A DNA stretch of 60,562 nt from a virus (IMGVR_UViG_3300046167_000012:1-60562), one strand, 5' to 3'. Counted from the stretch's first letter, positions 31,394 through 45,386 are shown. The notes: generated by a model from the sequence alone, not told the origin. A program made the numbers and translations.

Positions 31394-31635
31394 TCCAGTT
31401 TGATAGGAGACGTTTTTATATACGAGGGGGTGGGGTCACTTAGCGCGCCGAAAACGCTAGGTAGGGGGGTCTGTTTTGATACCCGTGACGATACTTTGTG
31501 GGGTCGGATTCGTTTTTGGAAAAACGTAAAATATTTGTGAATAATAGTATTATATAGACGCGCGGACAGGTAGCCGTACTGGGGGGTGGGGGGTAGGTGG
31601 GGGTAGTGAGTCACTACTTTTTATACCCTGATACT

Positions 31636-31664
31636 GTGACACAACACACACAAACAAGTATACT
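31636..31664 (+). promoter_or_regulatory. Sigma70-type early promoter
   Basis: GTGACA-17 bp-TATACT upstream of 31727. Confidence 0.65.
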
Positions 31665-31726
31665 GGTGTTATCAAAAGCGAAACATGGTGTATCGCTAGA
31701 TAAAATATTCTTGAAAGGAATATACT

Positions 31727-32278
31727 ATGACTAAAATTAATCAACCAAAACTAAGCGCAGAACTAGGTAAAGAGATTGCACAGTTCAGTAAACATAAAGT
31801 TAATCAGGACAAGCGAACAACAAAAGTTCTTGATCTGTTTAAATCATGTGGGTTCAAAAGCACCGACCTAATCAGCAACACCTCAAAAGGTTCTACAGCC
31901 ACAGAGGAGCAATTCACATGGTGCAAGCAAATGATAGCGAATGGCTTTCCAGATGGAGTTAAAGAGCTTTGTGAACTATCTGCAAAGGCCGCAGGCGATA
32001 AGGTTATCGATGGTCGCAATAGATCATACTGGTCAAAACAACCAAACTCTATAATGGGCGCGTTAAATACCCAACTAAGGAATAGGGAAGAAATTGACGC
32101 TGAGATAGCAAGCGGCAAGCAGGGTGCTGATGCTAGAACAAGATCATCTGAAGCGATTGCCAAGGATCAACTAGGCAAAATAATAACTCGCTTACAAAAA
32201 GCTGAGACATTCGAAACAACTATGGATTTGGATGTTATGATCTCGCAACTACAAGCGATGGTTAAATCAATCGGCTAA
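31727..32278 (+). CDS. Early hypothetical protein
   Basis: 183-aa ORF with AAGGA RBS and promoter. Confidence 0.75.
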   Translation: MTKINQPKLSAELGKEIAQFSKHKVNQDKRTTKVLDLFKSCGFKSTDLISNTSKGSTATEEQFTWCKQMIANGFPDGVKELCELSAKAAGDKVIDGRNRSYWSKQPNSIMGALNTQLRNREEIDAEIASGKQGADARTRSSEAIAKDQLGKIITRLQKAETFETTMDLDVMISQLQAMVKSIG

Positions 32279-32328
32279 ACTAAACTTGGAGCGGCCTAGG
32301 CCGCTCCATACTAACAGGAAATAAAACA

Positions 32329-32580
32329 ATGTTAAAAACACTATCATATAAACAAGATCAAAACAGAATTGGGGAAGCAATGGGATTTAAACGTATTGGA
32401 ATGGTTGCAATAGATATGATTGCAAAATGGCCAGATGAAAAGTTTGACATATTCTTTCCCGCTTTAAGCGTTCGAATGTGTCCGGAAGAAATTGAACGCG
32501 TTCACGATAAAAGACGTTTCAACAAAGAACAAGATGAACCATTTACCAAACAAATGTCTTTTACATTTATACCAAAATAA
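32329..32580 (+). CDS. Early hypothetical protein
   Basis: AGGA RBS; followed by a terminator. Confidence 0.65.
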   Translation: MLKTLSYKQDQNRIGEAMGFKRIGMVAIDMIAKWPDEKFDIFFPALSVRMCPEEIERVHDKRRFNKEQDEPFTKQMSFTFIPK

Positions 32581-32586
32581 CCACAC

Positions 32587-32617
32587 GCCCCGAGCCGAAA
32601 GGTTCGGGGCTTTTTTT
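32587..32617 (+). terminator. Rho-independent terminator
   Basis: GCCCCGAGCC-GAAA-GGTTCGGGGC-TTTTTTT. Confidence 0.9.
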
Positions 32618-32655
32618 GTGTCTAGATTTCTGTATGTGTTACACCACACAATTAT

Positions 32656-32888
32656 ACCAGTTCTCTGAATAGCTTCGCGTCGCAGAGCAATCGGCCTCGT
32701 TATTCGCTTTATCAAAACAAGTAGTGACTCACTACCCATCGACACCAGTTCTCTGAATAGCTTCGCGGATCATATGTACTTCGTGTGTACATCTTCTCGT
32801 ATGTTTATGTATGTCGTGTTTACCGGGCCCGTAAGTAAGGTAGTGACTCACTACACGTCGACGCCAGTTCTCTAAGTAGCTTCGCGGA
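32656..32888 (+). repeat. Three 24-bp direct repeats (RCCAGTTCTCTRARTAGCTTCGCG)
   Basis: Copies at 32656, 32744 and 32863. Copies 2 and 3 are preceded by the 15-bp palindrome, giving ~49-bp units at 32721 and 32840. Confidence 0.9.
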
Positions 32889-32918
32889 GCAACACGTACG
32901 CAGATACCTTGTTTTTAT

Positions 32919-33229
32919 AATGTTCCATTGTAATGTTCCTAATGTTCCACAAGAAGTTCCACAATGTGCAAAAATAAGTCATTGATTTTATTATAATGTT
33001 CCTAATGTTCCTAATGTTCCATGAAAAAAAATATAGCACCCCATACGCGACCCCCTCTATAATGCGATACCAACCTCACACACAATTTGCCTACACCCCA
33101 AAAATTAACGGAACATTTGGAACATTGGAACATTCCAATGATTTCAAGCACTTACAGACACACCAAATGGAACATTATAAAACCCGATTGGAACATTGTA
33201 ATCTTATCAATAACTTAGCACGGAACATT
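32919..33229. repeat. Iteron array (6x AATGTTCC, then 6x GGAACATT) with IHF-like sites; putative replication origin
   Basis: AATGTTCC at 32919, 32932, 32941, 32995, 33004, 33013. GGAACATT at 33110, 33119, 33127, 33169, 33190, 33222. WATCAANNNNTTR matches at 32975-32987 (minus) and 33205-33217. Confidence 0.8.
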
Positions 33230-33324
33230 ACCTTTTAACCCAGTAGTGTCTCACTACCATATACAACCTCGCAATACCTGACGATACCCTGTAATACTTG
33301 ACATAACAAAACACTCTGAAAAAC

Positions 33325-33353
33325 TTGACATTACATGGTTATCATGTTATATT
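33325..33353 (+). promoter_or_regulatory. Strong sigma70-type early promoter
   Basis: TTGACA-17 bp-TATATT. Confidence 0.8.
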
Positions 33354-33461
33354 GGTATATGTTCTGGTGTGATGGCTAACGCCCCAGCTCCACGAGCATC
33401 GCTACCTAGTGTAGTGTCTCACTACCAATCTAATCAACTAATCAAACGAATGGAGATTATC

Positions 33462-33671
33462 ATGCCTATCAAAGCCTATTGCCTCTCATGCGAGCAACCT
33501 TACTCACAACGCCGAAAACAATTGGGTTACAACTTCTGCCTAGATTGCGGTGAATACCAAGCGACTAAGCAACGCGCAGGATGGTGTATCGCACCTATCG
33601 CGCACAAGCAAGGCGCAACACTTGTCACCAATCCAAAAGACCTCAAAGGTCTAAACAAGTATTCGTCATGA
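33462..33671 (+). CDS. DksA/TraR-like C4 zinc-finger protein
   Basis: Start refined to 33462 (GGAG RBS). CLSCEQPYSQRRKQLGYNFCLDC. Confidence 0.55.
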   Translation: MPIKAYCLSCEQPYSQRRKQLGYNFCLDCGEYQATKQRAGWCIAPIAHKQGATLVTNPKDLKGLNKYSS

Positions 33672-33898
33672 TGAAATTCTGGACAGTACTTCTACTGACG
33701 TATCACGCAGGGTCTGACGATGTCGAACCTATGACTTCAAGTATCCTGTTACCCTCGATGGAAATATGCGGTGATGTGATGGACGACTTCTATCCAACTA
33801 TATTCACGCACTATCCTGACAGCATGGCTCAATGCCTAGAAACCGCAGAGGCTTCAACAACTATGACAAGCCCAATGCCAAAACTAAGACCGTTCTAA
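33668..33898 (+). CDS. Small exported-type protein
   Basis: ATGA overlap; MMKFWTVLLLTY; two Cys; C-terminal SPMPKLRP. Confidence 0.55.
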   Translation: MMKFWTVLLLTYHAGSDDVEPMTSSILLPSMEICGDVMDDFYPTIFTHYPDSMAQCLETAEASTTMTSPMPKLRPF

Positions 33899-33909
33899 AG
33901 GAGGACATT

Positions 33910-34827
33910 ATGAACAACGTACACCAACTAACCGCCGCGAGTAGTGAGCCACTACCAACAGATGCACCGACACTTGGCTCATCTGCAATGCTCGTAGAAG
34001 TCAACATCTCTACATGGGCAGGTCGAAGGGAAGACAAGCGGGCTTCCGCTAAAGTCACACAAGACGCCCATGCAAAAAAGGGTATAGCAAACGTGACGAA
34101 GAAGTTACTCGCTAACTCTGACACACTGAGAGCAATACATGTACACGTTACTGCTACTCGCAACATGCACTCGAATATGACGATGCCTTGGTCTAATTCT
34201 GGGCTACGTCTGTTACCTACAGCGCAATACTTCAACTACAGCGAAGCTATGTCTCAAATGCAGAATGAGTTTGAAGCACTAAAGACTAAGTTTCTAGACT
34301 CGTACAACGACGCAGTGGTAGATGTACAGTTAGAGCTTGGCTCGTTGTTCTTACGTGACGACTATCCCACATTAGAAAGTCTAGATAGTAAGTTTGCTTT
34401 CCGTACAAATTACATGCCGTTGCCAGATGTCGGTGACTTCCGTGTCGATGTGGGCAACGAAGCACTACTCGAAATCAAGCAGAAGTATGAGGACTTCTAT
34501 TCCAAACAATACAATACAGCTATGAATGACGTGTGGACACGTTTGCACAAGGCACTGACAAATATGTCTGAGCGCCTAGACTACAGCGGTAAAGAGGACA
34601 AGAAAGTATTTCGTGATACGCTCGTTGGTAATGTCACTGACATGATAGAACTACTACGTGTGTGTAACGTGACGAAGTCGATCCAGATGTCCGACATGGC
34701 AAACAAACTCGAAGATGCAATGTCTGGTGTATCCGCCGTGGTATTGCGTGACGACAATACGTTCCGCGTCAGAACCAAAGCGAAGGTCGACGACATTATC
34801 AAAACACTACCATCATTAGATATGTAA
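33910..34827 (+). CDS. Conserved helical phage protein (DUF3150-like partner of AAA+/vWA modules)
   Basis: Start refined to 33910 (GAGGA). SSAMLVEVNISTW...TMPWSNSGLRLLP...DYP...KF.F. Confidence 0.5.
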   Translation: MNNVHQLTAASSEPLPTDAPTLGSSAMLVEVNISTWAGRREDKRASAKVTQDAHAKKGIANVTKKLLANSDTLRAIHVHVTATRNMHSNMTMPWSNSGLRLLPTAQYFNYSEAMSQMQNEFEALKTKFLDSYNDAVVDVQLELGSLFLRDDYPTLESLDSKFAFRTNYMPLPDVGDFRVDVGNEALLEIKQKYEDFYSKQYNTAMNDVWTRLHKALTNMSERLDYSGKEDKKVFRDTLVGNVTDMIELLRVCNVTKSIQMSDMANKLEDAMSGVSAVVLRDDNTFRVRTKAKVDDIIKTLPSLDM

Positions 34828-34884
34828 GAATGGTAGTGGCTCACTACTTAACAACACTAAACTTAAACAAGAAAGAAGAACAAC

Positions 34885-35997
34885 ATGAATAATCAAGCAC
34901 AATCAATGTACGCACTAAGCCCAGATCAAGTTTCTGATGCAATCAAGAGCCAACTACATGTGGATGAAGAGGATAAGAACACACTTATCGTTGAGGGTCA
35001 CATGGGTAGCGGCAAATCTTCGATACTGAAAACACTGGACGCGCAGTTACCGAAACACAAAGCAATCTATTTTGATTGCACAACCAAGGCAGATGCAGGT
35101 GACTTGATGATGCCCAAGTTCAAAGACCTAGAAGGTAACGACTATGTGACCTTTGCCACTAACGAGGAACTAGGTGTACACATCAAAGATCAACCACTCA
35201 TTATTATGATAGACGAGGTGGGTAAGAACAAGAGCTTACAGAACCCACTCAATCGTTTGTTCCAAGAGCGTATGATTGGTATGAACAAACTACATCCTGA
35301 CACGCTAGTGTTTGCTACAACTAATATTGGTGCAGAAGGTGTCGGTGATATGTTCATGCCACACACATGTAACCGCGTCACGTTTGTACGCATGCGTAAA
35401 CCTAACAATACGGAATGGATCGAATGGGGTATCAACAACGACATAGACCACAGCATGCTTGGTTGGTGTAAGGACAATCCACAGTTGTTTGCATCGTTTG
35501 AAGATGTGAAAGACCCAGACGAAAACCCGTGGATATTTCACCCAAAAGCTTTTAGACGTTCGTTCTTTACGCCGCGCTCTGGTCACAAAGCATCTAACTG
35601 GCTAAAACAACGCCACCTCCTTGATGATCAAACACTCACAGCCGCATTAATGGGTACGATTGGTGATCGTGCGGCAATGGACTTGATGGCGTTTGTAACA
35701 CTAGCTGATCAGCTACCTACCTTGCAGTCTATCAAAGACAATCCAAAGAGTGCCAAAGTGCCTGACAGCGCCGCCGCCATATGTATGGTTGTGTATAGAA
35801 CTCTGTCTGCGTTGGAAAAAGACTGGCTCAACAGCTGGATGGATTACTTGCCACGCCTCGATACCGAAGCACAAGCTATGTTTGCTAATGGTGTACGCGC
35901 ACCGAAGTATTCAAAGCAGTCAATGGTTATGACTAACAAGAAGTTCACCGAGTGGGCTATGAAGAACAACCACCTATACACAGCAGATAAAATATAA
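34885..35997 (+). CDS. MoxR-like AAA+ ATPase
   Basis: GHMGSGKS Walker A; IMIDE Walker B; FATTN; NR; TPRS. Confidence 0.8.
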   Translation: MNNQAQSMYALSPDQVSDAIKSQLHVDEEDKNTLIVEGHMGSGKSSILKTLDAQLPKHKAIYFDCTTKADAGDLMMPKFKDLEGNDYVTFATNEELGVHIKDQPLIIMIDEVGKNKSLQNPLNRLFQERMIGMNKLHPDTLVFATTNIGAEGVGDMFMPHTCNRVTFVRMRKPNNTEWIEWGINNDIDHSMLGWCKDNPQLFASFEDVKDPDENPWIFHPKAFRRSFFTPRSGHKASNWLKQRHLLDDQTLTAALMGTIGDRAAMDLMAFVTLADQLPTLQSIKDNPKSAKVPDSAAAICMVVYRTLSALEKDWLNSWMDYLPRLDTEAQAMFANGVRAPKYSKQSMVMTNKKFTEWAMKNNHLYTADKI

Positions 35998-36008
35998 GGA
36001 GAGAAATA

Positions 36009-36401
36009 ATGGGTAAACGATGGACAGATAAAGAGGACGGTATCCTCGAAGCATTACGTGATGGGGGCATGACCTTTGAGGAGATTGCTTCCGTAATGGG
36101 TCGCACAAAGCAAGCAGTACAGCAACGTGCGCATATGTTGAAACGTAACGAGCCTACGTTTCGTGAAGTTGTGGATACAGCTTTTGCCAAGCACGGTATC
36201 GAGTTCGGTGAACCTGATAAAGTTGATGCGGCGTATGAACACTTTAAAGAACAGCTATACCCTAATGGTGTTAGCGACATTCATGCTTCATTACAGAAGA
36301 ACAAGCCGTTGCCGAGAATACAATACATGCTCAGTCAAATGGAACGAGACTTAAAGCCGAAGCCGCAGTGGTGGAAAGCTATGATGTGGTGGAGGAAATA
36401 A
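36009..36401 (+). CDS. GcrA/Myb-like helix-turn-helix protein
   Basis: WTDKEDGILEALRDGGMTFEEIASVMGRTKQAVQQRAHML parallels the GcrA N-terminal WTD...G.S..IA..LG.TRNAV...HRL. Confidence 0.6.
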   Translation: MGKRWTDKEDGILEALRDGGMTFEEIASVMGRTKQAVQQRAHMLKRNEPTFREVVDTAFAKHGIEFGEPDKVDAAYEHFKEQLYPNGVSDIHASLQKNKPLPRIQYMLSQMERDLKPKPQWWKAMMWWRK

Positions 36402-36402
36402 C

Positions 36403-37674
36403 ATGCTAGCAATTAAACAACTAACTGAGGAGCAACGCCTAACAAAAGCCGTTGTATCTATTATGAGTAGCCCGAAGTATGTCGCACTCGCAGGGGTGCT
36501 AATGATCGGGGAGCGTTCTGTAGTGGACGACCCGAGCGTACCGACGGCATGTACCAATGGGCGTGACGAGTTCTACGGACGTGAGTTTGTAAGTAAGCTC
36601 AACGATGCCGAGCTTAGATTTCTGGTATTGCACGAAGTGTACCACAAGTTGTTCCGTCACTTGACCACATGGAAACATCTATACATGCAAGACGCATACC
36701 TTGCGAATGTATCGTGTGACTACGTGATCAACCTAAAGATTGTAGATGATAACTACGAAGATGGGTTTGCTACTATGACAGGCGAGCTTGCGAAAGGTTG
36801 CTATGATCGTAAGTATGTGGGTATGGACACCGCGCAGGTGTACAACTTGCTACGTAAAGATCAACCGCAAGGCGGCGCGGGTCGTGGTGGTGTTATCGTA
36901 ATCGGTGATCCCGAAGATGGTGATGGTACACCGCAGAACGGTAGTGGCTCACTACCTGATGGACAAGAACCATTCGATGCACATGATTGGGAAGGCGCAC
37001 AAGAAATGACCGCCGACGAACAACGTGATCTTGCCAGAGAGATTGACGAGGCAGTACGTCAAGGTGCATTGGTTGCAGGGAAGATGGGCAGTGGTGGTGA
37101 TCGTGACCTAGAAGCATTACTAGAACCACAAGTCGATTGGCGTGAAGTGTTGCGTGAGTTTGTGCAGGCTACATGTACAGGCAATGATTACTCTACATGG
37201 CGTAAACCAAAACGTAGGTTGCTTGGTCAAGGTATATACATGCCTAGCACGTACAGCGAACAGGTCGGGGAACTGGTGGTTGCAATCGACACGTCTGGGT
37301 CTATCCAACAGCCCGAAGTCACCGCGTTTCTTTCCGAGGTCAAAGCAATATGCGATATGGTACACCCAGATAAAGTACGTCTGTTGTATTGGGACACGAA
37401 GGTATGTGGTGATGAAACGTATGACACGCATGAACTAGAAACACTTATACAATCTACCAAGATCAAAGGCGGTGGCGGTACAGATGTAGACTGTGTGACT
37501 GAATACATTCGTGAAGAAAGCATCAACGCGCAAGCGGCTATCGTACTAACAGATGGAGAACTATACAGTGGTTGGGGTCAGTGGACTATGCCTGTGTTGT
37601 GGTGCGTTATCGACAACAAGCACAAAGTGCCAGACGTAGGTAAATGTGTACACATAAAATCGAGGGACATGTAA
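36403..37674 (+). CDS. Metallopeptidase + vWA domain protein (DUF2201-like)
   Basis: PTACTNG; LHEVYH (HExxH); NVSCDYVIN; VAIDTSGS MIDAS; GGGGTD; LTDG. Confidence 0.85.
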   Translation: MLAIKQLTEEQRLTKAVVSIMSSPKYVALAGVLMIGERSVVDDPSVPTACTNGRDEFYGREFVSKLNDAELRFLVLHEVYHKLFRHLTTWKHLYMQDAYLANVSCDYVINLKIVDDNYEDGFATMTGELAKGCYDRKYVGMDTAQVYNLLRKDQPQGGAGRGGVIVIGDPEDGDGTPQNGSGSLPDGQEPFDAHDWEGAQEMTADEQRDLAREIDEAVRQGALVAGKMGSGGDRDLEALLEPQVDWREVLREFVQATCTGNDYSTWRKPKRRLLGQGIYMPSTYSEQVGELVVAIDTSGSIQQPEVTAFLSEVKAICDMVHPDKVRLLYWDTKVCGDETYDTHELETLIQSTKIKGGGGTDVDCVTEYIREESINAQAAIVLTDGELYSGWGQWTMPVLWCVIDNKHKVPDVGKCVHIKSRDM

Positions 37675-37847
37675 TGAGTAAAACTTATATTGGAGTGTGG
37701 GAGTGTACCTTCTACAAGAGCGATGCCGATGGCAACGAACTCAAGAACGCCGATGGTAGTATCAAACTATTCGATGCACCTAAATTAGATATGTCTCACT
37801 TTGCGGAGTACGTAGACGACGATGATTTAGTGGAGGTGAAGCGATGA
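37674..37847 (+). CDS. Hypothetical protein
   Basis: TAATG coupling; start refined to 37674. Confidence 0.55.
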   Translation: MSKTYIGVWECTFYKSDADGNELKNADGSIKLFDAPKLDMSHFAEYVDDDDLVEVKR

Positions 37848-38122: not shown

Positions 38123-39220
38123 ATGGCACTAACATATTCATCATTCGAGAGCTTCGACGAGGTAGTGGCTCACTACGAAAACATAAAGCCAATGGGCGGT
38201 AGTGGTAACAAGGGTAAAGATATCAGACCCATAGGTGATCGTAAACGTAAGTACGAACGTATCGTAAAGATCAGCAACAACTGCTACGCACTATCAGACG
38301 GCTTTCACTTTGGTGACAAGTACTTCAACTGGGGTTGGGGCTATACTGCTTCTGCTGAGTTTGTACCTACACTAAAGGACATGGAGAAGTATGCACCTAT
38401 CATATGGCGCAAGAAACGTGACGGCACAGAACAAGTCACAATACGTAATGGGTATGGAAATCACGCACACAACGGACGTTATGCTTTTATAAACAGGCAT
38501 ACACCAAAAGGTCTGGGGTTTGTTGTCGACAATGGTAAACAGTATGTGACTAAGACAATGGGTAGGTATCCTGACCATAGGCATGACGAACGATATTACT
38601 TAGCCAAGACCCATACCGCACCGCGTATTGTCTACGACCATATAAAAGATCAGCAAAACGCTAATTGGTATCAAGAAAATGCTAAGAAGTGGGTCATGTT
38701 ACACGACGACAACTCTGCCTTAGTGTTCAACAAAGCCGAAAGTAAAGATCGGTTCTCTGGTGTTGACTGGGTACATGTCAAGGGAACAGGGCGCGCACTG
38801 CCGAAAGCGCCGCGTGTGAACATAGAAATCAAAGCCAAGTACAAAGACTCAATCAAAAAGTTTTTCGAATGGGGTATGACTATGTCACCGCTAATGCCAT
38901 TGGAGGACAACGAGTACCTGTATAAACATCATCAAGACTTGGTTGAAGCCTACGGTCAAACAAGGGGCAACCACTGGAGGAAAGTAGATGGTATGAGAGG
39001 ACGTGAGATTGTGCGTAGTAGTAGACACCCTGCACGGCTAGCGTTTTGGATAGAGTTTGCCAAACAATGCTACGCGCCAGACGAGCAGAGTTGGAGTTTC
39101 AACAGTTCGCCGTTGCTCACTAAAATAAAAACCAAAGAAGATATTTCCCATGTACGAGCATGCTTCAACAGATTTATCAACACAGAACTTGGGTTCATTA
39201 CAAAAGGAGAACAACCATGA
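38123..39220 (+). CDS. Early hypothetical protein
   Basis: 365-aa ORF with AGGA RBS. Confidence 0.75.
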   Translation: MALTYSSFESFDEVVAHYENIKPMGGSGNKGKDIRPIGDRKRKYERIVKISNNCYALSDGFHFGDKYFNWGWGYTASAEFVPTLKDMEKYAPIIWRKKRDGTEQVTIRNGYGNHAHNGRYAFINRHTPKGLGFVVDNGKQYVTKTMGRYPDHRHDERYYLAKTHTAPRIVYDHIKDQQNANWYQENAKKWVMLHDDNSALVFNKAESKDRFSGVDWVHVKGTGRALPKAPRVNIEIKAKYKDSIKKFFEWGMTMSPLMPLEDNEYLYKHHQDLVEAYGQTRGNHWRKVDGMRGREIVRSSRHPARLAFWIEFAKQCYAPDEQSWSFNSSPLLTKIKTKEDISHVRACFNRFINTELGFITKGEQP

Positions 39221-40107
39221 GTGACTTAGAATTAAAATTAGTAAGGGATATTGAAAAACCAAACCCAGATTATAAGGTATATACACCTAATCTAGATGTG
39301 CAGATGATGGCAGATGCACTAACCAAAAAGGTTCGCGGTTACAAGACCGCGCCTAAAAGTTTGGAATCCATGTGGGTTTACAGACCGCAAGACACCTACG
39401 CTATGGGTTGGATAAGATACGCAGACGTGTTTGAAGGTGGTACAGGTGACAAGCGGCATGCTGTTTATTCGCCTAACATACAGAACGGCAAGTACTCGTA
39501 TGGAGATAATTGCTTCATGTCTTCAGCACTGCATTTCAACAAGGGGTTACTTAACGCATGTAAATACCTACGCCCACCAACCGCAAAGCAAGTTGTGGAA
39601 CAAGTGCAAAGGGATTTTGCTAGAGGTGTGTCTCGTTCGTTGGACGAAGTAAAGACCAAGGCACACAAGATAACGAACAAGATTGACACCGATGTATTTG
39701 GTAGGACACGCCTAAACACCGCACCTCTTAAAAGAGAACTCGCTAACATATTAAAGTCAGACTACGAGTTTCTCGACAAAGAACTTGAAGTGCAACTAAT
39801 CGAAGCCTTTGAAGCGGTTAAGGAGCTACATGATAGTAGAGATATACATGATAAAGACCACACGTTTATCGAGGTTGTACAAGCTCAAGGTGCTAACCTA
39901 TACCGAGGCTTCAAGAAAATACCGCAACACTTCACACTGTTTCATCACGACGATAGTGCTGATAACAAGATAGCGTACACACAGGAAGAACTACCAGAGA
40001 GACTACTCGGTGCTATGTCTGTGTTGTCTATGGTCGACGAAGGCCAATACGTTGCGGGTGTTGGGTATCGTGCAGGTGAAAATATGTTCTACATTAAAGG
40101 CGAGTAA
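39217..40107 (+). CDS. Hypothetical protein
   Basis: Start refined to 39217 (AGGAG, ATGA overlap). Confidence 0.75.
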   Translation: MSDLELKLVRDIEKPNPDYKVYTPNLDVQMMADALTKKVRGYKTAPKSLESMWVYRPQDTYAMGWIRYADVFEGGTGDKRHAVYSPNIQNGKYSYGDNCFMSSALHFNKGLLNACKYLRPPTAKQVVEQVQRDFARGVSRSLDEVKTKAHKITNKIDTDVFGRTRLNTAPLKRELANILKSDYEFLDKELEVQLIEAFEAVKELHDSRDIHDKDHTFIEVVQAQGANLYRGFKKIPQHFTLFHHDDSADNKIAYTQEELPERLLGAMSVLSMVDEGQYVAGVGYRAGENMFYIKGE

Positions 40108-40109
40108 GT

Positions 40110-40367
40110 GTGGGAACAACTGACACTATCACGTACCGCGTGACAATACATCCTACTACAAATAAGGTTAATGTAATGTCTTTTGATCTAGACGCTATTG
40201 ACGCGACAGGTTTAGGAGTATATGACACTATAAACGAAACACCTAAATGGATCAGGGAGCGTATTGCTACACTTATGCTCGTTGATCCTACACCACCGAC
40301 TGAACCAATAGAAGGTGTAGGTCACAGGATCGACAAAACTACTTATTGGATTTACGCTGATAGGTAG
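40110..40367 (+). CDS. Hypothetical protein
   Basis: 85 aa. Its C-terminus (P.WIRERIATL...IEGVGHR) echoes the end of the preceding ORF (PERLLGAMSVL...VAGVGYR). Confidence 0.6.
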   Translation: MGTTDTITYRVTIHPTTNKVNVMSFDLDAIDATGLGVYDTINETPKWIRERIATLMLVDPTPPTEPIEGVGHRIDKTTYWIYADR

Positions 40368-40445
40368 TGACACACTACCAATTTAACTTTGGGGGGCGGA
40401 CATCTGCCCCCCATCGAAGCCAGTTATTTTACATGGAGATCAACA

Positions 40446-40754
40446 ATGGCAACAACACCAGAAGCTAAAGTAAAGAAGGTAGTGACTAACTACCTAAAGA
40501 AGATGGGAGCATACTACTTCTACCCTGTTACAGGTGGATTTGGACGAAGCGGCGTACCTGACATAATCGCATGCTACAAAGGTCTGTTCCTTGGTATTGA
40601 ATGTAAAGCAGGGAAGGGGAAGACTACCGCACTGCAACAGAAGAACCTAGATGATATCAAAACAGCAGGGGGTTTTGATTGGGTTGTAAACGAAACAAAT
40701 ATGCACCAAACAGAAACACAGATTAAGTATTGGGCATCAACACAACAGGAATAA
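40446..40754 (+). CDS. VRR-NUC nuclease / Holliday-junction resolvase-like
   Basis: TPEAKVK...GVPDII...FLGIECKA...TALQ...I...GG. Confidence 0.85.
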   Translation: MATTPEAKVKKVVTNYLKKMGAYYFYPVTGGFGRSGVPDIIACYKGLFLGIECKAGKGKTTALQQKNLDDIKTAGGFDWVVNETNMHQTETQIKYWASTQQE

Positions 40755-40759
40755 ACAAT

Positions 40760-41245: not shown

Positions 41246-41436
41246 TGCACAACAAAAAGAAACTAACGCCCGCCCTCGAGTACGAGTTACAGTTCTTACG
41301 TAAACAAGTAGACTTTTGGCAACAGCAATACATACAACCAACTGCATCACCATCTGCAAGAGATCGTTACGACTACGCCAAAGCAGACTTAACTAAGTTT
41401 GTTAGTAACAGGCGCAAAGAAGGATACAACATATGA
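41245..41436 (+). CDS. Hypothetical protein
   Basis: Coupled on both sides. Confidence 0.6.
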   Translation: MHNKKKLTPALEYELQFLRKQVDFWQQQYIQPTASPSARDRYDYAKADLTKFVSNRRKEGYNI

Positions 41437-41888
41437 CCAAGAAAGAAGAACGTGTATGGACGTATCTACTTGCTAACCGCAAGGCAACTTCTAGTGAAGT
41501 AGCTAAAGCCGTAGGGGTAAGTATAAAATACGTAGACAAGATGATAGCAACTATATCGTCACCTAACTGGAGAGAAGAAATACCTGTGCCTAAGTTTGTA
41601 AAGGACGACAACGCTAAAACTAGGTACGACCTGTTACCACCAGAGTTGCTCGAAGAAACAGCAAGAGTTCTTACGTTTGGCGCACAGAAGTATAGCGCAC
41701 ACAACTGGGCGCAAGGTGCATCTTGGAGTAGATACTTTAGCGCAATGATGCGTCACATGTGGGCTTGGTGGAGAGGTGAAGATAATGACCCCGAAACAGG
41801 GTTTTCACATTTAGCACACGCCGCATGCTGTCTTAGCTTTCTCATAGCTTATCAGCGGCGCGGCCTTGGAGAGGACGATAGAGTATAA
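41433..41888 (+). CDS. dATP/dGTP diphosphohydrolase-family (DUF5664-like) protein with N-terminal HTH
   Basis: KTRYDLLP...VLTFGAQKY..HNW..G...AMMRH..AW..GED.DPETG.SHLAHAAC; N-terminal ATSSEVAKAVGVSIKYV. Confidence 0.8.
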   Translation: MTKKEERVWTYLLANRKATSSEVAKAVGVSIKYVDKMIATISSPNWREEIPVPKFVKDDNAKTRYDLLPPELLEETARVLTFGAQKYSAHNWAQGASWSRYFSAMMRHMWAWWRGEDNDPETGFSHLAHAACCLSFLIAYQRRGLGEDDRV

Positions 41889-42250
41889 TGGGCAGTAAAA
41901 TTAAACCTATAACTGAAAAGATAATTACTCTTAGTAAAGCGGGTATGTGTAAGGAAGACATAGCACGAGAAGTACAAGGGACTTACGCACAGGTTGCCGC
42001 GTCCATAGCAAGGGCGCAAAGGCGTGGAGATTTGCCGCCAAATAAGCCAGTTCCCATCACAGATATAGCATCGTTTAGGCGTCGCTACGATATTAAGACA
42101 GGTAGTGTTGGTTCGTCGTTGGTAGAAAACACCACCAAAGAAGTATGGGATTTTGCCGCAGACCAAATGCTAAGAAACGATTACCCTAGCTTGGCAGATT
42201 ACCTCGTCGATTTGTTAGTAGATGAATACTACAAAAAGAAAGTTAACTAA
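41888..42250 (+). CDS. HTH-containing hypothetical protein
   Basis: GMCKEDIAREV..TYAQVAASIARA.RRG. Confidence 0.55.
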   Translation: MGSKIKPITEKIITLSKAGMCKEDIAREVQGTYAQVAASIARAQRRGDLPPNKPVPITDIASFRRRYDIKTGSVGSSLVENTTKEVWDFAADQMLRNDYPSLADYLVDLLVDEYYKKKVN

Positions 42251-44076
42251 TGGATGTATACACGCTCGACTTTGAGACTTACTATGATCAGGACTACTCA
42301 CTATCTAAGATGACGACAGAAGATTATGTGCGCGACTCACGGTTCGAAGTAATCGGCCTTGCTATAAAAAAGAATGATAAAGCCACTCAGTACTTAAACG
42401 ACCCCGTGACCATTGAACGTCTACTATCATACATAGACTTCTCTCAGAGCGCCATCCTAGCACAGAACACTATGTTCGATGGAGCTATACTAAGTTGGAG
42501 ATATGGTGTGAAGCCGAAGGTTTGGTTCGATACTATGTGCATGGGTAGAGGTTTACACGGCGTGGATGCAGGCGCATCATTGCGGGCTTTGTCTGAACGC
42601 TACGGTATCGGCGAAAAAGGTTTCGAAGTACACAACGCCAAGGGCAAACGCCGCGCCGATTTCACTGCGGAAGAAGCTAAGAAGTACGGCGAGTATTGTA
42701 TACAGGATGTCGAGCTAACGTATAAACTGTTTAAGATCATGGGGGCTAACTTCCCTCGCACTGAGCTAAAGCTAATCGACGTTACATTGCGTATGTTTAT
42801 TGATCCGATACTTGATCTAGACCTTGGGTTGTTGGAACAGCACTTGGAAGACACGCAAGATCGTAAGGATAAACTACTGCGCGATGCAGGGGTGACAGAT
42901 AAGAAAGACTTGATGTCAAATCTCAAGTTTGCTGACATGCTACGTGATCTTGGTGTCGAGCCGCCTATGAAGACCAGTCTGACAACAGGTAAGGAGACGT
43001 ACGCCTTTGCTAAGAGCGACGAAGACTTCAAGGCATTGCAGGAGCATGCTGATGATCGTGTGCAATCTCTAGTAGCGGCGCGCCTTGGGAACAAATCTAC
43101 TCTTGAGGAAACACGTACGCAGAGGTTTATAGGTATATCTAAACGTGGGCGTTTACCCGTACCGATTAGGTACTACGCGGCGCACACCGGCAGATGGGGT
43201 GGGTCAGATAAAATTAACTTACAAAACCTACCGAGCCGTGGGCCAAATGGTAAGAAGCTAAAGAAGGCTATCATTGCACCAGAAGGACACACAGTTGTCG
43301 AAGCCGATTCGTCCCAAATCGAGGCGCGAGTGCTTGCGTGGTTCGCAGGGCAGAACGATCTTGTAGATCAGTTCGCCAAGGGTGAGGACGTGTACAAGTA
43401 TATGGCGTCAAGTATATACAACGTGGCCGTAGAAGACGTAACTAAAGACCAAAGGTTCGTGGGTAAGACTACAATTCTAGGTGCGGGCTACGGCATGGGG
43501 GCAGAGAAGTTCGGCATGCAGTTAAAGACGTTTGGGTTTGAGGTGTCTGAGGACGAGGCAAGACGGATTATATCTATCTATCGAGAAGCTAACTTTAAGA
43601 TAAGCAAGGTATGGAGAGATGCTAACTACATGGTTAAGCAGTTGGCTAACTACCGTGCTGTGCAGTTTGGTAAGAAGGGTATCATTGGGGTAGACCCTAA
43701 AAACCAAGCCCTGATAGTACCTAGTGGGTTAAAGATATTTTACCCTGAGTTACATGGGGAGCAGTCTGAGAGTGGTTTCGAATATACATACAAAGTACGC
43801 CGAGGCCGAACACGGATATATGGCGGTAAAGTTATCGAGAACGTGTGTCAGGCTATAGCGCGTTGCATAATAGGTGAGCAGATGCTACTAATTAATAAGA
43901 AGTATAAAGTAGTGCTTACTGTACACGATTCGATTGCATGTTGTGTACCCGACGAGGAGGTCGCTGAAGCACAAGCATACGTGGAGAGATGTATGAGATG
44001 GACACCAGACTGGGCAGAGGGCCTTCCTGTCGATTGCGAAAGTGGCACTGGCAAATCCTATGGAGATTGTGAATGA
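42250..44076 (+). CDS. polA: Family A DNA polymerase with 3'-5' exonuclease
   Basis: LDFETY (ExoI); N..FD; YC..DV; HTGRW; NLQN; ADSSQIEAR (motif A); R..GK...LG.GYG (motif B); TVHDS (motif C). Confidence 0.93.
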   Translation: MDVYTLDFETYYDQDYSLSKMTTEDYVRDSRFEVIGLAIKKNDKATQYLNDPVTIERLLSYIDFSQSAILAQNTMFDGAILSWRYGVKPKVWFDTMCMGRGLHGVDAGASLRALSERYGIGEKGFEVHNAKGKRRADFTAEEAKKYGEYCIQDVELTYKLFKIMGANFPRTELKLIDVTLRMFIDPILDLDLGLLEQHLEDTQDRKDKLLRDAGVTDKKDLMSNLKFADMLRDLGVEPPMKTSLTTGKETYAFAKSDEDFKALQEHADDRVQSLVAARLGNKSTLEETRTQRFIGISKRGRLPVPIRYYAAHTGRWGGSDKINLQNLPSRGPNGKKLKKAIIAPEGHTVVEADSSQIEARVLAWFAGQNDLVDQFAKGEDVYKYMASSIYNVAVEDVTKDQRFVGKTTILGAGYGMGAEKFGMQLKTFGFEVSEDEARRIISIYREANFKISKVWRDANYMVKQLANYRAVQFGKKGIIGVDPKNQALIVPSGLKIFYPELHGEQSESGFEYTYKVRRGRTRIYGGKVIENVCQAIARCIIGEQMLLINKKYKVVLTVHDSIACCVPDEEVAEAQAYVERCMRWTPDWAEGLPVDCESGTGKSYGDCE

Positions 44077-44405
44077 AGGATAAATACATCAATGCGTATG
44101 AAGCGCAGCTGCTTGGGGCTCGAAATACTCCAACGCAGGGGCGAGCCGAGGTTAAGTTAGCTGGTGGAGAGTTAGAGGTTAAGTTAGGTGGTGGAGAGTT
44201 AATTTGTTGCCCGCTCTGTGACGGTGCCGAGCTAACAATGCGGACTTGGGAGTTACGGAACGGTCTTGTTATGGAGTATAGTGGTATGTTCGCGGATTAT
44301 CACTGCCGAGACTGCGATGAGGTAATGACGTTGGGTTTCTTCAACCAACCTATAGGAGAGGATAGGATGGCCGCAAGAATAAACTGGGTGGTAAAAGATG
44401 AGTAA
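44073..44405 (+). CDS. Zn-ribbon protein with internal 27-bp tandem duplication
   Basis: CPLC...CRDC; EVKLAGGEL/EVKLGGGEL. Confidence 0.55.
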   Translation: MKDKYINAYEAQLLGARNTPTQGRAEVKLAGGELEVKLGGGELICCPLCDGAELTMRTWELRNGLVMEYSGMFADYHCRDCDEVMTLGFFNQPIGEDRMAARINWVVKDE

Positions 44406-45072
44406 AGCCGCGCCGTGGTCGTTTAGCCGTATCAAAGCATTTGAGCAATGCCCCAAACAGTTCTACCATGAGAAGGTACTCAAGCAGTATCCGTTCAGAG
44501 AAACCGAGGCTATGCGCTACGGCACTGAGTTCCACAAGGCATGTGAGGATTACATAGGTAAAGGTACTCCTGTACCCGCCAAGTTTGACTTTATAAAACC
44601 TACGTTGGATTCCCTTAATAACAAAAAAGGTAAGAAGATAGTAGAGCAGAAGTTAGGCTTGACCGCTGACCTAGAACCCTGCAGTTTCTTTGCAAAAGAT
44701 GTATGGTTTCGAGGCATTGTTGATCTTGCGATCATAGATAAAGAAACTGGGGTGGGTTGGATAATTGACTACAAGACAGGCAGATCGGCGAAGTATGCTG
44801 ACAAAGGCCAGTTGGAGTTGATGGCGTTGACAATTTTTAAACATTACCCCGAGGTCACTAAGCTAAATGCAGGTCTGTTGTTCGTTATTGCCAAGAGCCT
44901 TGTCAAAGCCGAATATGAAATAGACTTACAGCAACTTCTATGGGGGAAATGGTTAGCAAACTATGCTAAGATGGAGAAAGCGTTCGAGGTGGATGTTTGG
45001 AATCCAAAGCCATCTGGTCTGTGTAAACGACACTGTCAAGTAGTTGAGTGTCCCCATAATGGAGCAAACTAA
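44398..45072 (+). CDS. PD-(D/E)XK exonuclease (RecB/Cas4-like)
   Basis: WSFS....FEQCP...GTEFH...RGIVDL...IIDYKTG...QL; C-terminal C..HC....C. Confidence 0.85.
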   Translation: MSKAAPWSFSRIKAFEQCPKQFYHEKVLKQYPFRETEAMRYGTEFHKACEDYIGKGTPVPAKFDFIKPTLDSLNNKKGKKIVEQKLGLTADLEPCSFFAKDVWFRGIVDLAIIDKETGVGWIIDYKTGRSAKYADKGQLELMALTIFKHYPEVTKLNAGLLFVIAKSLVKAEYEIDLQQLLWGKWLANYAKMEKAFEVDVWNPKPSGLCKRHCQVVECPHNGAN

Positions 45073-45362
45073 TGCCATACGTAAATAAACCCCGCCCGTA
45101 TAAAAAAGAATATCAACAGCAGAAAGCGAGAGGAGAACACGAAGCTCGTATGGAGCGACAACGCGCCAGACGTGCGATGGATAAGAAAGGTAAAGATGCC
45201 AACAAGAATGGCAAAGCCGACAAGCGAGAAGGTAAAGATATCGCTCACAAGAAGGCACTAAGTAAAGGCGGCACAAACAAGGACGGATACAAAGTCCAAA
45301 GCCGTAAGAAAAATCGAGCCGCGGGTGGTGCTATGAGCAGCCCCAAAAAGAAGAAAAAGTAG
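45072..45362 (+). CDS. Basic HNH-like protein (degenerate)
   Basis: GKDIAHKKALSKGGTN...NR resembles the HNH motif. Confidence 0.55.
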   Translation: MPYVNKPRPYKKEYQQQKARGEHEARMERQRARRAMDKKGKDANKNGKADKREGKDIAHKKALSKGGTNKDGYKVQSRKKNRAAGGAMSSPKKKKK

Positions 45363-45386
45363 TGACTCACTACTACGGAGAACAAC

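Follow-up and report, generated by a model that had tools for sequence, protein, structure and literature searches.

What do a dozen near-identical palindromes do in one arm of a marine phage genome, and what reads them? The window, by which we mean the whole 60.5-kb stretch of DNA analyzed (IMGVR_UViG_3300046167_000012, completeness 99%), carries 11 exact copies of GTAGTG-N3-CACTAC (sites 1 to 10 and 12 below) and a twelfth copy, site 11, with one mismatch. The features of the early arm are as follows; G010 is a close relative.

31603..31617, no strand: site 1, GTAGTGAGTCACTAC, in the divergent control region (motif scan)
31636..31664, + strand: presumed early promoter, sigma-70-like, GTGACA-17-TATACT, 10 of 12 consensus positions, by consensus match only
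31727..32278, + strand: first early gene, 183 aa, candidate palindrome reader
32329..32580, + strand: second cassette gene, 83 aa, after which a strong terminator closes the cassette
32587..32610, + strand: that intrinsic-terminator-like hairpin and T-run, 10 pairs (8 G-C), then TTTTTTT, ending the two-gene cassette
32721..32735, no strand: site 2, in a 0.8-kb non-coding region, 119 bp from site 3
32840..32854, no strand: site 3, non-coding region
33243..33257, no strand: site 4; the start that the promoter at 33325-33353 implies is about 110 bp downstream
33325..33353, + strand: the arm's best sigma-70-like promoter, TTGACA-17-TATATT with TG, 11 of 12
33411..33425, no strand: site 5, 36 nt upstream of ATG 33462 of the gene for a 69-aa Cys4 protein
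33941..33955, no strand: site 6, +31 nt within the DUF3150 gene (ATG 33910)
34833..34847, no strand: site 7, junction of DUF3150 stop and AAA ATPase start, 37 nt before ATG 34885
36742..36756, no strand: weak site, GTAGATGATAACTAC, outer GTAG/CTAC kept, identical in G010
36941..36955, no strand: site 8, deep in the DUF2201/VWA gene, +538
38162..38176, no strand: site 9, +39 nt within the conserved unknown gene 38123-39220
40364..40378, no strand: site 10, sharing bases with the stop of ORF 40110-40367, Hjc-like gene 67 nt downstream
40479..40493, no strand: site 11, GTAGTGACTAACTAC, one mismatch, +33 nt within the Hjc-like gene
42218..42232, no strand: weak site, GTAGATGAATACTAC, identical in G010
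45359..45373, no strand: site 12, sharing bases with the stop of ORF 45072-45362, helicase ATG 13 nt further on

Palindromes confined to the early arm

A preliminary description of this DNA had placed the twelve copies in the early arm only, and this is confirmed: the arm-restricted palindromes are real, not random. Scanning the window outside 31603-45373 gave no copy at zero or one mismatch, and 100 dinucleotide-preserving shuffles gave a mean of 0.00 copies, with no match in any shuffle. Four matches with two mismatches (2240, 8723, 19383, and 47399) are at chance level, since 3.02 are expected at up to two mismatches. The looser core GTAG-N7-CTAC occurs at 16 sites where 1.04 are expected, the extra, weak sites lying at 36742 and 42218 within the arm and at 8723 and 19383 outside it.

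The local placements given in that description also hold. Sites 10 and 12 overlap stop codons, and site 1 is centered approximately 61 bp upstream of the start implied by the promoter-like sequence at 31636-31664 and lies 110 nt upstream of the first early gene. Sigma-70-like sequences as a class are not significant, as 23 were found against 26.5 expected between 31000 and 46000. Sites 4 and 5, with centers 168 bp apart, flank the promoter at 33325-33353, sites 2 and 3 have approximately 45 nt of downstream sequence in common, and a G6/C6 hairpin follows site 10. Four copies lie within ORFs in two frames, read manually against the ORF table as SSEPL (33941), GSGSL (36941), VVAHY (38162), and VVTNY (40479). 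The term intragenic suits the copy at 36941, deep within its gene, but less so the other three, which are just 30 to 39 nt past a start codon.

Palindrome types across the phage family

A palindrome recurs at least three times in 79 of 81 related loci centered on the ATPase gene, and 71 of these 79 could be assigned to 16 named types, so that the family holds at least 16 lineage-specific palindromes (shuffle controls covered the window, L262, and L233). The window's own motif is type A. Six complete genomes hold exact copies of their resident motif only in an arm of 13 to 19 kb that starts beside the terminase genes (11 copies in the window, 9 in G010, 11 in G006, where the arm crosses the ends of the record, 13 in G007, 15 in G008, and 16 in G009), with none in the remaining ∼40 kb. 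Among relatives, the positions are kept while their letters are swapped by lineage.

This swapping is seen at site after site. Lineages E and C, and also type A3, have an equivalent of site 1 at 100 to 150 nt before the first gene. The type B orthologue of the DUF3150 gene has its own type B motif at +18, and the site 7 junction is occupied by a type B motif in L030 and L035. The intragenic place of site 8 (gene 36403, +519 to +538) holds type A in L006 (+529) and a type C motif in L019 (+519). The junctions 33910/34885, 38123/39160, and 40110/40446 likewise carry lineage-swapped palindromes, the last of them, that of site 10, in types A, B, C, E, F, and G. Site 11 joins an A half-site to an A3 half-site; the orthologous place has the same hybrid letters in L006, a one-mismatch variant in L011, and full A3 in G010. 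The site 12 junction, upstream of the helicase, bears lineage-specific palindromes (A, B, E, F, G, H, I, or others) in many of 81 helicase-centered loci, 10 to 14 or 31 to 40 nt before the ATG. Among 347 unique sites of 13 types, 63 lie deep in genes, against 229.8 expected from random placement (binomial p ∼1e-75), and the other 284 are at gene boundaries. The distance from a site to the next ORF start is most often 15 to 25 nt (136 of the 347 sites have an ORF start within 60 nt downstream).

The preliminary description noted that GANTC, the CcrM methylation site read by GcrA, is intact at the center of four copies, which motif scans bear out (31603, 32721, 32840, and 45359), and suggested that the sites may sense methylation or the cell cycle. 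That suggestion is not supported, because only 4 of 12 copies have GANTC, because the type A center is not conserved (AAA 23, ACT 16, and GCT 13 are the commonest of 99 unique instances), and because the centers of most sister types exclude GANTC (e.g., GTTAGGC-N3-GCCTAAC, TTATACG-N3-CGTATAA, and CTAGGACGCGTCCTAG). GANTC is depleted in the window as a whole (109 observed, 180.5 ± 12.8 expected).

Co-variation of palindrome and first early gene

Where near-identical genomes have different palindromes, the greatest difference between them is the first early gene. The window and G010 (type A3, GTAGTT-N3-AACTAC) encode proteins that are 88 to 100% identical in both arms (TerS 96%, TerL 97%, major head 98%, and helicase 97%), whereas identity falls to 65% for the ATPase and 41% for the second gene, and BLAST gives no hit for the first gene. 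At nine orthologous sites the type A letters have given way to A3 or near-A3, among them those at 40364 and 40479 within genes 97 to 99% identical and site 9, which reads GTAGTTTATAACTAC within an 88% identical gene; the G010 equivalents of 36941 and 45359 are still type A. Likewise, L262 (GTAGTC-N4-GACTAC) and L260 (type K) are 97% identical in ATPase, DUF3150, and DUF2201 and 71% in the first gene; four exact left-hand sites of L262 are of its own type, and the site before its ATPase is still type K. L233 is a natural chimera with a first gene of the A3 clade, five surrounding sites that are pure A3, and six sites further downstream that are A or hybrid. The ATPase was excluded as reader, given that L209 has a 90% identical ATPase and yet type E sites and first genes without any hit.

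First-gene clades track motif type (A, 6 rows, support 99; A3, 3 rows, 100; T, 2 rows, 100; 4 of 6 B rows, 99). The first-gene tree requires 21 label changes against a minimum of 20, a test that does not discriminate, since ten other genes are also just 1 to 2 changes over their minimum. Part of the co-variation could be co-inheritance, because the first gene and its nearest sites are physically linked, and only the rewritten downstream sites escape this caveat. The two divergences also do not scale, which counts against the first gene: A and A3 are one base per half-site apart and their first genes align only remotely (hhalign E 2.3e-4, probability 44.5%), the K and L262 motifs differ more and their first genes are 71% identical, and L221 and L266 have the half-site GTTAGGG in common and first genes in different BLAST clusters.

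The product of the first gene is a fast-evolving, all-alpha protein that belongs to a lineage-specific family. No match was found in Pfam or PHROGs, or by Foldseek with the structure model (pLDDT 91.8), at E 0.001; VIA returned helical-hairpin matches only (Z up to 6.6). No DNA-binding fold or family was thus recognized, which speaks against this protein as reader. It has 142 environmental homologues, and the sole label among the 120 listed is one automatic JGI name, "predicted transcriptional regulator". It is predicted to form a homodimer (ipSAE 0.77, compared with 0.01 for the best of three controls; contact agreement at least 96% between runs, partner pLDDT at least 88). Of 30 proteins solved as one-chain pairs, 20 reached this mark, as did one of 23 single-chain structures, counts that are only rough here because our own alignment was used. 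The prediction supports dimerization, short of proof, and is silent on DNA. In each of the 45 TerS-bearing loci, a first plus-strand ORF of 110 aa or more is present at this place, and the other variable genes (36009, 40730, 41888, and 32329) are missing from many lineages; homologues of the second gene (32329) are limited to types A and A3 in BLAST clusters of second genes.

Readers and roles of the palindromes

The palindromes are most likely docking sites for the phage's own regulator, because relatives carry different palindromes in place and these change with the first gene. We give a probability of roughly 0.5 to the reading that the twelve are double-stranded DNA operators of a phage-encoded dimeric protein, the likeliest reader being the first early gene product. 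Imperfect copies retain the outer half-site letters rather than pairing, as operators would. Most sites are away from recognizable promoters, and their centers show a strand asymmetry that a symmetric dimer does not predict (coding-strand C:G counts are 41:15 for type A, 19:0 for K, 10:2 for E3, and 5:0 for C1, but 24:26 for B); both observations count against the operator reading.

That asymmetry, C-rich on the sense strand in several types, would suit a hairpin of RNA, with a 6-bp stem and a 3-nt loop, that the polycistronic early message forms just 5' of ribosome-binding sites and that is either bound by a lineage-specific translational repressor or activator or acts in processing or stability. 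The genes of the array are co-directional and every copy falls on their transcribed strand, the peak in the distance to the next ORF start suits a hairpin, and the hairpin forms in minimum-free-energy folds that leave the Shine-Dalgarno sequence free. We nevertheless consider an RNA role unlikely, and less likely than DNA operators. The 63 one-arm variants reveal no sense-strand G-U preference (sense G-U in 7, antisense G-U in 14, and neither in 42), weak sites keep their outer GTAG/CTAC without pairing, types C and D hold GTTAG-N8-CTAAC with non-complementary inner bases, and several types are perfect palindromes with a center of 0 to 2 nt, an awkward loop. Site 1 would be outside the early transcript, being upstream of the presumed early promoter. 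Fold z-scores are ordinary in three of four contexts (-0.4 to -1.7), and no Rfam family matched.

A protein of the same kind might instead serve partition of the phage genome in an extrachromosomal state, replication or recombination loading close to the origin, or compaction of the early arm. ParB binding to parS and the linear plasmid-prophage N15 with its dispersed centromere sites are known cases, which the palindromes of 15 to 18 bp resemble, spread as they are over 13 to 19 kb beside a probable origin, some intragenic and most away from recognizable promoters; inverted arrays of the 8-mers AATGTTCC and GGAACATT suggest an origin near ∼32900-33230. Relatives in MAG bins are on contigs of whole-phage size (50,584 to 64,095 bases) and so give no sign of integration. 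Against this, Pfam and PHROG scans of the arm proteins brought up neither a ParA-like nor a ParB-like family, the AAA ATPase, partnered with a VWA protein, belongs to the AAA_5/MoxR kind, and partition has no need of a bias toward stop-to-RBS junctions, which could merely reflect where a 15-bp word is tolerated. We hold such a role to be unlikely too, slightly more so than an RNA hairpin.

It is improbable that the sites work as single-stranded DNA hairpins, whether as promoters of a phage RNA polymerase or as signals for replication priming or nicking. Phage N4 has early promoters of this type, hairpins used by its virion RNA polymerase, which the sites recall in their stem of 6 to 7 bp and 3-nt loop, and types A, K, E3, and C1 have a purine (G) as the template-strand loop center; the distance to the ATG would leave a short leader with a Shine-Dalgarno sequence. 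A language-model search placed protein 38123-39220 near RdRP-like two-barrel polymerase clusters (score 0.90, 154 shared features), a score that by the tool's own note arises by chance 4 to 10 times in 100. However, no RNA polymerase family was detected among the 50 window proteins scanned, and protein 38123 lacks an invariant Asp triad (its invariant residues are F11, Y18, P36, R40, Y55, W95, Y120, P128, F202, K237, and R305); its model (pLDDT 86.4) gave no fold match at E 0.001. Between the window and G010, identity is 88% for protein 38123 and 92% for protein 39160 despite the different motif. For the 2211-aa virion protein, LPD39 and a DarB-like C-terminus are the only hits, and the PDB gave no sequence match.

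A shade more improbable still is a host reader, either a global regulator or a defense sensor, with motif type mirroring host lineage. The Xanthomonadales LexA box is TTAGTA-N4-TACTAA, and type I, GTTAGTAC-CC-GTACTAAC, resembles it; moreover, the divergent L121 and L194, whose early proteins are just 25 to 65% identical to those of the window, also have type A. However, the window and G010 differ in motif while their structural and tail genes are 92 to 98% identical, so that they probably have the same host range, and this near-identical structural arm argues against a host-encoded protein. Chimeras hold two motif types per genome, split left and right, and at least 16 types in one phage family exceeds the usual variation of host regulators.

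Least probable is that the palindromes have no binding protein and mark the borders of modules as hot spots of recombination or as small mobile palindromic elements. One metatranscriptome contig fusing 40380 to 33964 (both just past motif copies), mosaic boundaries near sites among relatives, and the deletions between palindrome copies reported for Cluster O phages (PMC4351075) might suggest this. Against it, 15 bp is short for homologous recombination, random insertion explains neither positional conservation with full letter swaps nor concerted rewriting in 97 to 99% identical genes, and copies that are identical within a genome and confined to one arm need a selective reader.

We thus return to operators of a phage dimer. 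The preliminary description proposed a phage operator network confined to the early arm, which fits all the findings and gains comparative support, apart from its methylation and cell-cycle part. Its comparison with mycobacteriophage stoperators is apt as a functional analogy only, since the present sites are palindromic and neither an integrase nor a recognized repressor was found among 50 window proteins scanned against PHROGs. The regulator would be made first, from the early promoter, and a symmetric dimer would occupy the sites that separate a gene's stop codon from the ribosome-binding site that follows. There it may down-regulate the replication arm or time its expression, acting as a roadblock and/or looping the DNA between sites 115 to 168 bp apart, while the structural arm, having no sites, would be untouched. 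The first gene, the promoter-proximal site, and the adjacent non-coding sites would together constitute a swappable specificity module, one that may have radiated into at least 16 palindromes within this phage family.

The palindrome set and the phage that carries it

Motif scanning recovered 11 exact copies of GTAGTG-N3-CACTAC (type A) and one copy with a single mismatch, all within 31603-45373. None of 100 shuffles held a copy, in keeping with the claim of the preliminary description that the set is not a product of chance. Its account of the reading frames of the intragenic copies, of the overlaps with stop codons, of GANTC centers in 4 of the 12 copies and of a site (site 1) ~61 bp upstream of a promoter-like element was likewise confirmed. 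Four copies do lie in ORFs, but three of these are just 30 to 39 nt past the start codon. Conservation in relatives holds for the system at its fixed positions and fails for the letters; the palindrome set is a real, strongly non-random feature that is kept as a system and not as a sequence.

The record is a whole IMG/VR virus entry, linear, 60,562 bases long and 99% complete, and is organized in two arms.

Features of the record (coordinates, strand, description)
~51.7 kb across the record ends to 31.3 kb, minus strand, arm of structural and packaging genes
51666-58301, minus strand, 2211-aa polyvalent protein with an LPD39 domain and a DarB-like C-terminus
31.7-51.4 kb, plus strand, arm of replication genes
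31727-32278, plus strand, first early gene (183 aa)
32329-32580, plus strand, second gene

The minus-strand arm encodes the small and large terminase subunits (TerS and TerL), portal, major head protein, tail proteins, lysins and a DNA ejection protein. The N-terminal ~1250 residues of the 2211-aa protein are without any match, and its counterparts are 27 to 30% identical in the relatives G004 and G006-G009 and 92% identical in G010, a near-isogenic relative. Products of the plus-strand arm comprise a DUF3150 protein, an AAA ATPase, a DUF2201 metallopeptidase/VWA protein, a Hjc-like nuclease, a dGTP diphosphohydrolase, a family A DNA polymerase, an exonuclease, a SNF2 helicase, an HTH_17 protein and a primase; the first three of these (33910-37674, the ATPase being AAA_5-like) form a trio that is kept in almost all relatives. 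Comparison of 50 window proteins with PHROGs and 20 with Pfam identified no integrase, partition system or recognized or HTH repressor, and no phage RNA polymerase was found among the window proteins scanned against these collections.

The named phage collection holds no DNA match to the window. Cultured relatives are distant, with helicase identities of at most ~40% (Pseudomonas phage Rollin and Rhizobium RHph phages) and TerL identities of 44 to 47% (023Pt_psg01, DSL-LC04 and the pelagiphages HTVC027P and HTVC023P), and at least 598 helicase relatives occur in viral contigs. Near-identical DNA is present in 14 public DNA runs that contain at least half of the window's words; they come from 9 studies other than the possible source, all on seawater or marine samples. 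Four RNA-library runs also match the window, as contigs whose starts, ends and strand are not readable and whose presence there does not equate to transcription; contigs of one such study begin at 34882-34884, an observation that we give no weight. Helicase relatives (L303-L312, 54-64% identical) sit in MAG bins of widely differing taxa (Rhodobacteraceae, Sulfitobacter, Nanopelagicales, Aquiluna, Flavobacteriales, Caulobacteraceae and Sericytochromatia), the nearest two (helicase 63-64% identical) being labeled Rhodobacteraceae and Sulfitobacter. Several of these contigs are of whole-phage size (50-64 kb). The records thus look like phage genomes caught in bins and not like prophages, and they suggest a wide host range across the broader family. 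The structural genes of G004 (L205) contain tandem coding repeats of ~141 to 144 bp and ~216 bp, at 30400-31100 and 26180-26612, which are probably repeated Ig-like domains.

Palindrome types at conserved positions

The exact 15-mer with center ACT was found in 113 viral stretches. Other relatives use a palindrome of their own in its place, including GTTAGTG-N3-CACTAAC, GTTAGTCA-N2-TGACTAAC, TTAGGGA-N2-TCCCTAA, TTTACGGA-N2-TCCGTAAA, TTCGGGCA-N2-TGCCCGAA, CTAGGACGCGTCCTAG, GTTAGGC-N3-GCCTAAC, TTATACG-N3-CGTATAA, TTATGCG-N3-CGCATAA, CTTAGTC-N5-GACTAAG and GTAGTT-N3-AACTAC (type A3). A palindrome in at least three copies is present in 79 of 81 ATPase-centered loci, and 71 of these 79 belong to 16 named types, with shuffle controls for recurring palindromes covering the window and the loci L262 and L233. 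Positions are kept while the letters change: at the junction that precedes the helicase gene, where ORF 40110 stops, at the DUF3150/ATPase junction, in the start region of 38123/39160, at one place deep inside the DUF2201 gene and a site 100 to 150 nt upstream of the first early gene. In six complete genomes, all exact copies fall within 13 to 19 kb starting beside the terminase genes. Gene-boundary sites account for 284 of 347 unique sites from 13 types, against a random expectation of 117 (347 less 229.8 deep within genes; p ~1e-75), and the commonest layout is a stop codon, the palindrome, 15 to 25 nt and a start codon. No palindrome with at least three copies was found in G004, a 95% complete genome whose record is without the first 5 kb of the arm, and the 25 pairs listed for the initial 11.5 kb of L304, which was binned with Sulfitobacter, included no recurrent palindrome.

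Other repeats lie close to the sites. In the non-coding stretch 32900-33235, about six copies of AATGTTCC precede about six copies of the complement GGAACATT, forming inverted iteron arrays that are bordered by the palindromes at 32840 and 33243; they are probably a replication origin or the array of another regulator, and the ORF listed at 32996-33238 is probably not a gene. Three copies of a ~23-nt repeat, CCAGTTCTCT(G/A)A(A/G)TAGCTTCGCG, occur within 32658-32890, two of them 8 to 10 nt behind palindrome copies. RNA-library contigs skip 97 or 212 nt between copies of this repeat (joints 32679>32777 and 32679>32892), hence its copy number varies in the population. Behind the palindrome at the stop of ORF 40110 there is a G6...C6 hairpin (40390-40413, fold z-score -4.3), which is found at the same place in the loci L030, L035, L064, L071 and L079; G-rich runs lie behind the equivalent site in other lineages, and G-rich tracts precede site 1 (31560-31602). 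One RNA-library contig (run X16) joins 40380 to 33964 with 39 other letters between. Both bases are directly behind palindromes, those at 40364 and 33941, and the contig may represent a rearranged relative with its breakpoint at the sites.

A candidate reader and its alternatives

The genome G010 (type A3) differs from the window mainly where the sites and a few genes are concerned. Most of its proteins are 88 to 100% identical to those of the window in both arms (TerS 96%, TerL 97%, head 98%, helicase 97%), whereas BLAST detects no similarity between its first early gene and 31727-32278, its second gene is 41% identical and its ATPase 65%. Nine orthologous sites are rewritten in G010, some within genes that are 97 to 99% identical, and two keep the window's type, in segments 93 to 100% identical to the window. 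Replacement affects the first gene, the small ORFs 37644 and 44073 and a portion of the ATPase, and reflects recent mosaicism within a marine phage population. L209 has an ATPase 90% identical to that of the window, type E sites and unrelated first genes. In L262 and L260, the ATPase, DUF3150 and DUF2201 genes are 97% identical and the first gene 71%; the left-hand sites of L262 read GTAGTC-N4-GACTAC, and type K, that of L260, persists in L262 at the site preceding the ATPase. L233 carries a first gene of the A3 clade, amid five sites that are pure A3, and its downstream sites are A or hybrid.

Through three contrasts, one chimera and the clades, the half-site letters co-vary with one phage gene, and that gene and the nearest sites are linked. 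Because near-identical virions bear different motifs, the reader should be phage-encoded, and the reader gene probably lies in the left cassette. The first gene is the candidate since it is the sole cassette gene present in every lineage: it occurs in all 45 loci that hold TerS, and a homologous second gene is seen in A and A3 only. First-gene clades track the motif types with 21 label changes against a minimum of 20; the trees of other genes come close to this, and the test taken alone is therefore not discriminating, nor was a regression of pairwise identity on "same type". Against the first gene, L221 and L266 share a half-site and not a first-gene BLAST cluster, and divergence of protein and of motif is unscaled (A/A3 compared with K/the L262 type). 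Against operator reading by a symmetric dimer stand the strand-asymmetric center and the location of most sites away from promoters.

Other proteins were considered as readers and rejected. The HTH_17 protein (47360-47590) has a virtually identical HTH region in types E, G and J, whose palindromes are unlike, and orthologs of 40110-40367 are merely 25 to 29% identical in the type A phages L121 and L194. The sigma-70-region-4-like HTH protein 36009-36401 is missing in 5 of 19 type A loci that have both flanking genes and from every other type but A3. TerS is too similar between the window and G010 (96%), as is the ATPase between the window and L209 (90%, motifs unlike); the proteins 45072 and 46974, the exonuclease, the polymerase and the helicase are 87 to 93% identical between type E and type G loci.

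The first-gene family has 142 environmental homologs, one of which carries the automatic label "predicted transcriptional regulator". It is without a Pfam domain, and no recognizable DNA-binding domain, family or fold match was detected. The A3 version barely aligns to the type A profile (E 2.3e-4) and the 270-aa type T version does not align. An AlphaFold model of the window's protein (pLDDT 91.8) is all-helical; Foldseek gave no PDB match at E 0.001 and VIA wide returned helical-hairpin rows only (Z up to 6.6), which does not establish a new fold. A conserved surface patch of the protein comprises the S-P-K-S-x-G-S-x-A-S/T-x-E loop and residues ~95-107. With two copies, an extensive symmetric dimer is predicted, with an ipSAE of 0.77, the best of 3 controls scoring 0.01. 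Of proteins with solved structures, 20 of 30 homodimers and 1 of 23 monomers attained the ipSAE mark, a rough calibration as an own alignment was used. The dimer runs have at least 96% of contacts in common and pLDDT of at least 88. On the strength of this model, the first-gene product may form a symmetric dimer.

We conclude that the sites are probably read by a phage-encoded, sequence-specific factor. Our preferred reading, to which we give a probability of about 0.5, is that the palindromes are the operator set of a dimeric regulator encoded by the phage, with the first gene of the arm as the reader. The first early protein would be made from the promoter 31636-31664, with a cognate site at about -61, and its dimer would then bind throughout the arm. 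Wherever a site separates a stop codon from the following ribosome-binding site, it could act as a roadblock to the host polymerase, and looping might occur between the pairs 40364/40479 (115 bp), 32721/32840 (119 bp) and 33243/33411 (168 bp, around the strong promoter 33325-33353). The replication arm alone would thereby be silenced, in a timed or graded manner, and co-infection would bring a type-specific, immunity-like effect. That the effect of the sites is transcriptional silencing is a tentative proposal, and the main functional rival retains the same protein-site pairs for a non-transcriptional role, such as partition or origin-proximal organization; a search of the arm for a ParB-family or ParA match in Pfam or PHROGs found none.

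Another alternative, less favored than duplex DNA, is that the palindrome is read as RNA. The motif as RNA forms a modest hairpin that leaves the Shine-Dalgarno sequence free, and the ratio of C to G at the free center of the coding strand is 41:15 in type A, 19:0 in K, 10:2 in E3, 5:0 in C1 and 24:26 in B; the C-rich center of several types speaks for some strand-specific constraint. Against an RNA stem, G-U pairs would form on the sense strand in only 7, on the antisense strand in 14 and on neither in 42 of 63 one-arm variants; weak sites and the C and D types retain the outer half-site letters and fixed spacing and not complementarity; the center is 0 to 2 nt in several types; and site 1 lies upstream of the presumed early promoter. 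Rfam 15 gave no match at the gathering score over the whole window on both strands. Together, these observations favor duplex DNA and a symmetric dimer.

Hairpin promoters of the N4 type have a 5 to 7 bp stem, a 3-nt loop and a purine at the center of the template-strand loop. A stem with a 3-nt loop fits types A, B, K, T and U, and C is at the coding-strand center in 41 of 99 (A), 19 of 40 (K) and 24 of 59 (B) instances; other types have centers of 0 to 2 nt, and there was no single-subunit RNA polymerase family among the scanned window proteins and no PDB sequence match for the 2211-aa protein. The proteins 38123-39220 and 39160-40107 are conserved and fast-evolving (24-49% identical between lineages). 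The former has invariant Tyr, Arg and Lys residues and a model of pLDDT 86.4, with no Foldseek PDB match at E 0.001, and a language model weakly associates it with RdRP-like and Rep_trans clusters. It was rejected as a phage RNA polymerase, as neither conserved acidic residues nor the fold search backed this atlas pointer. For 39160 there was no usable atlas match; a PDB sequence search gave chance-level rows only for this protein and nothing for 38123.

CcrM and GcrA exert GANTC methylation control in Alphaproteobacteria, and the central GANTC of 4 of the 12 copies and the Rhodobacteraceae and Sulfitobacter labels of the nearest MAG-binned relatives recall that system, but the proposal that the sites depend on it is not supported, since GANTC is conserved neither within nor between lineages, the centers varying among 99 type A instances and the other types being without it. 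GANTC is depleted throughout the window (109 sites compared with 180.5 +/- 12.8 in shuffles, 100 of 100 shuffles being higher), which could reflect avoidance of a host GANTC-specific restriction or methylation system.

Comparison with known systems and significance

The closest described feature is found in Cluster O mycobacteriophages. Their 17-bp palindrome (5'-TGTTCGG-N3-CCGAACA) is present in 34 copies with invariant 7-bp arms and a free 3-bp center; the copies are more closely spaced in one transcription unit, many occupy small gaps between genes or the very 5' ends of genes, and a third lie within genes (PMC4351075). The five genomes, which are nearly identical, share this one motif, its center shows little orientation by strand, and copies seem to have recombined with one another. 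The phage gives no clear sign of being temperate, and its describers suspect that a dimeric protein binds the sites, without settling on a function (PMC4351075). The likeness lies in invariant arms of 6 to 7 bp, the free 3-bp center and the intergenic and 5'-end copies. The phages, hosts and letters are unrelated, and here at least 16 types swap at conserved positions on one arm only, natural chimeras single out a candidate reader gene and the center of several types is C-rich on the coding strand.

Cluster A stoperators (L5 gp71 type) are asymmetric 13-mers of temperate phages, oriented with transcription and present on both arms; one phage protein, an HTH repressor, reads them, the consensus varies by immunity group and they are proposed to block elongating RNA polymerase. 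The stoperator idea of the preliminary description holds for the many copies at short intergenic gaps, as both systems place one short site in many copies in short intergenic spaces of co-directional operons. It does not hold for the symmetric arms and the lack of temperate-phage genes among the proteins scanned: here the arms are perfect inverted repeats with only the free center strand-biased, one arm of the genome is involved and no integrase or recognized repressor was seen among those proteins. Some stoperator properties are discussed in the Cluster O account (PMC4351075), and a small repressor acting on repeated sites in a lytic mycobacteriophage, D29 Gp36, is described in a further report (PMC12266134).

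The exchange of a regulator gene and its cognate operators between near-identical genomes, as between the window and G010, resembles lambdoid immunity. In lambdoid immunity regions, cI and cro have their own operators, clustered at two promoters, whereas here cognate sites are also scattered 14 kb downstream and the candidate regulator is without an HTH signature. Scattered sites need rewriting after a swap, so chimeras with mixed sites exist. The P1 C1 operators, the N15 centromere inverted repeats and the conserved inverted repeats of phiC31 belong to temperate phages and are bound by C1, SopB and the c gene product, respectively. They share with our sites the scheme of one phage protein and ~5 to 20 copies of a 16 to 17 bp site over early or control regions, and the N15 and phiC31 sites are also inverted repeats; no homology to these systems was detected here.

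The literature, supplementary files aside and including a word search of PMC9599517, gave no account of such sites in marine phages. What is novel here is the many specificities at conserved positions, the mixed-type chimeras and a candidate reader without a known fold. The scattered palindromes of Cluster O mycobacteriophages came without a reader or a functional handle, and the environmental family supplies the missing natural experiment, with many palindromes at the same positions, inter-type chimeras and one gene tracking the switch.

A more far-reaching reading, which we consider rather improbable, is that a hypervariable specificity cassette with a dimeric DNA-binding protein of new fold forms an immunity or incompatibility module in apparently lytic marine phages. 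Its recognition code would have radiated into at least 16 palindromes, with the cognate sites along the replication arm rewritten again and again after module swaps, and the protein of a resident phage would shut down or keep out the early arm of a superinfecting phage of its own type, but not that of another type. If true, this would be an immunity system without lysogeny. Binding of protein to site is now testable, as are a new DNA-binding fold and the evolution of its specificity, and an immunity- or exclusion-like module in abundant lytic marine phages that would structure co-infection and recombination in the sea. In practice, the motif type offers a fast in silico marker of regulatory compatibility groups among metagenomic phage genomes.
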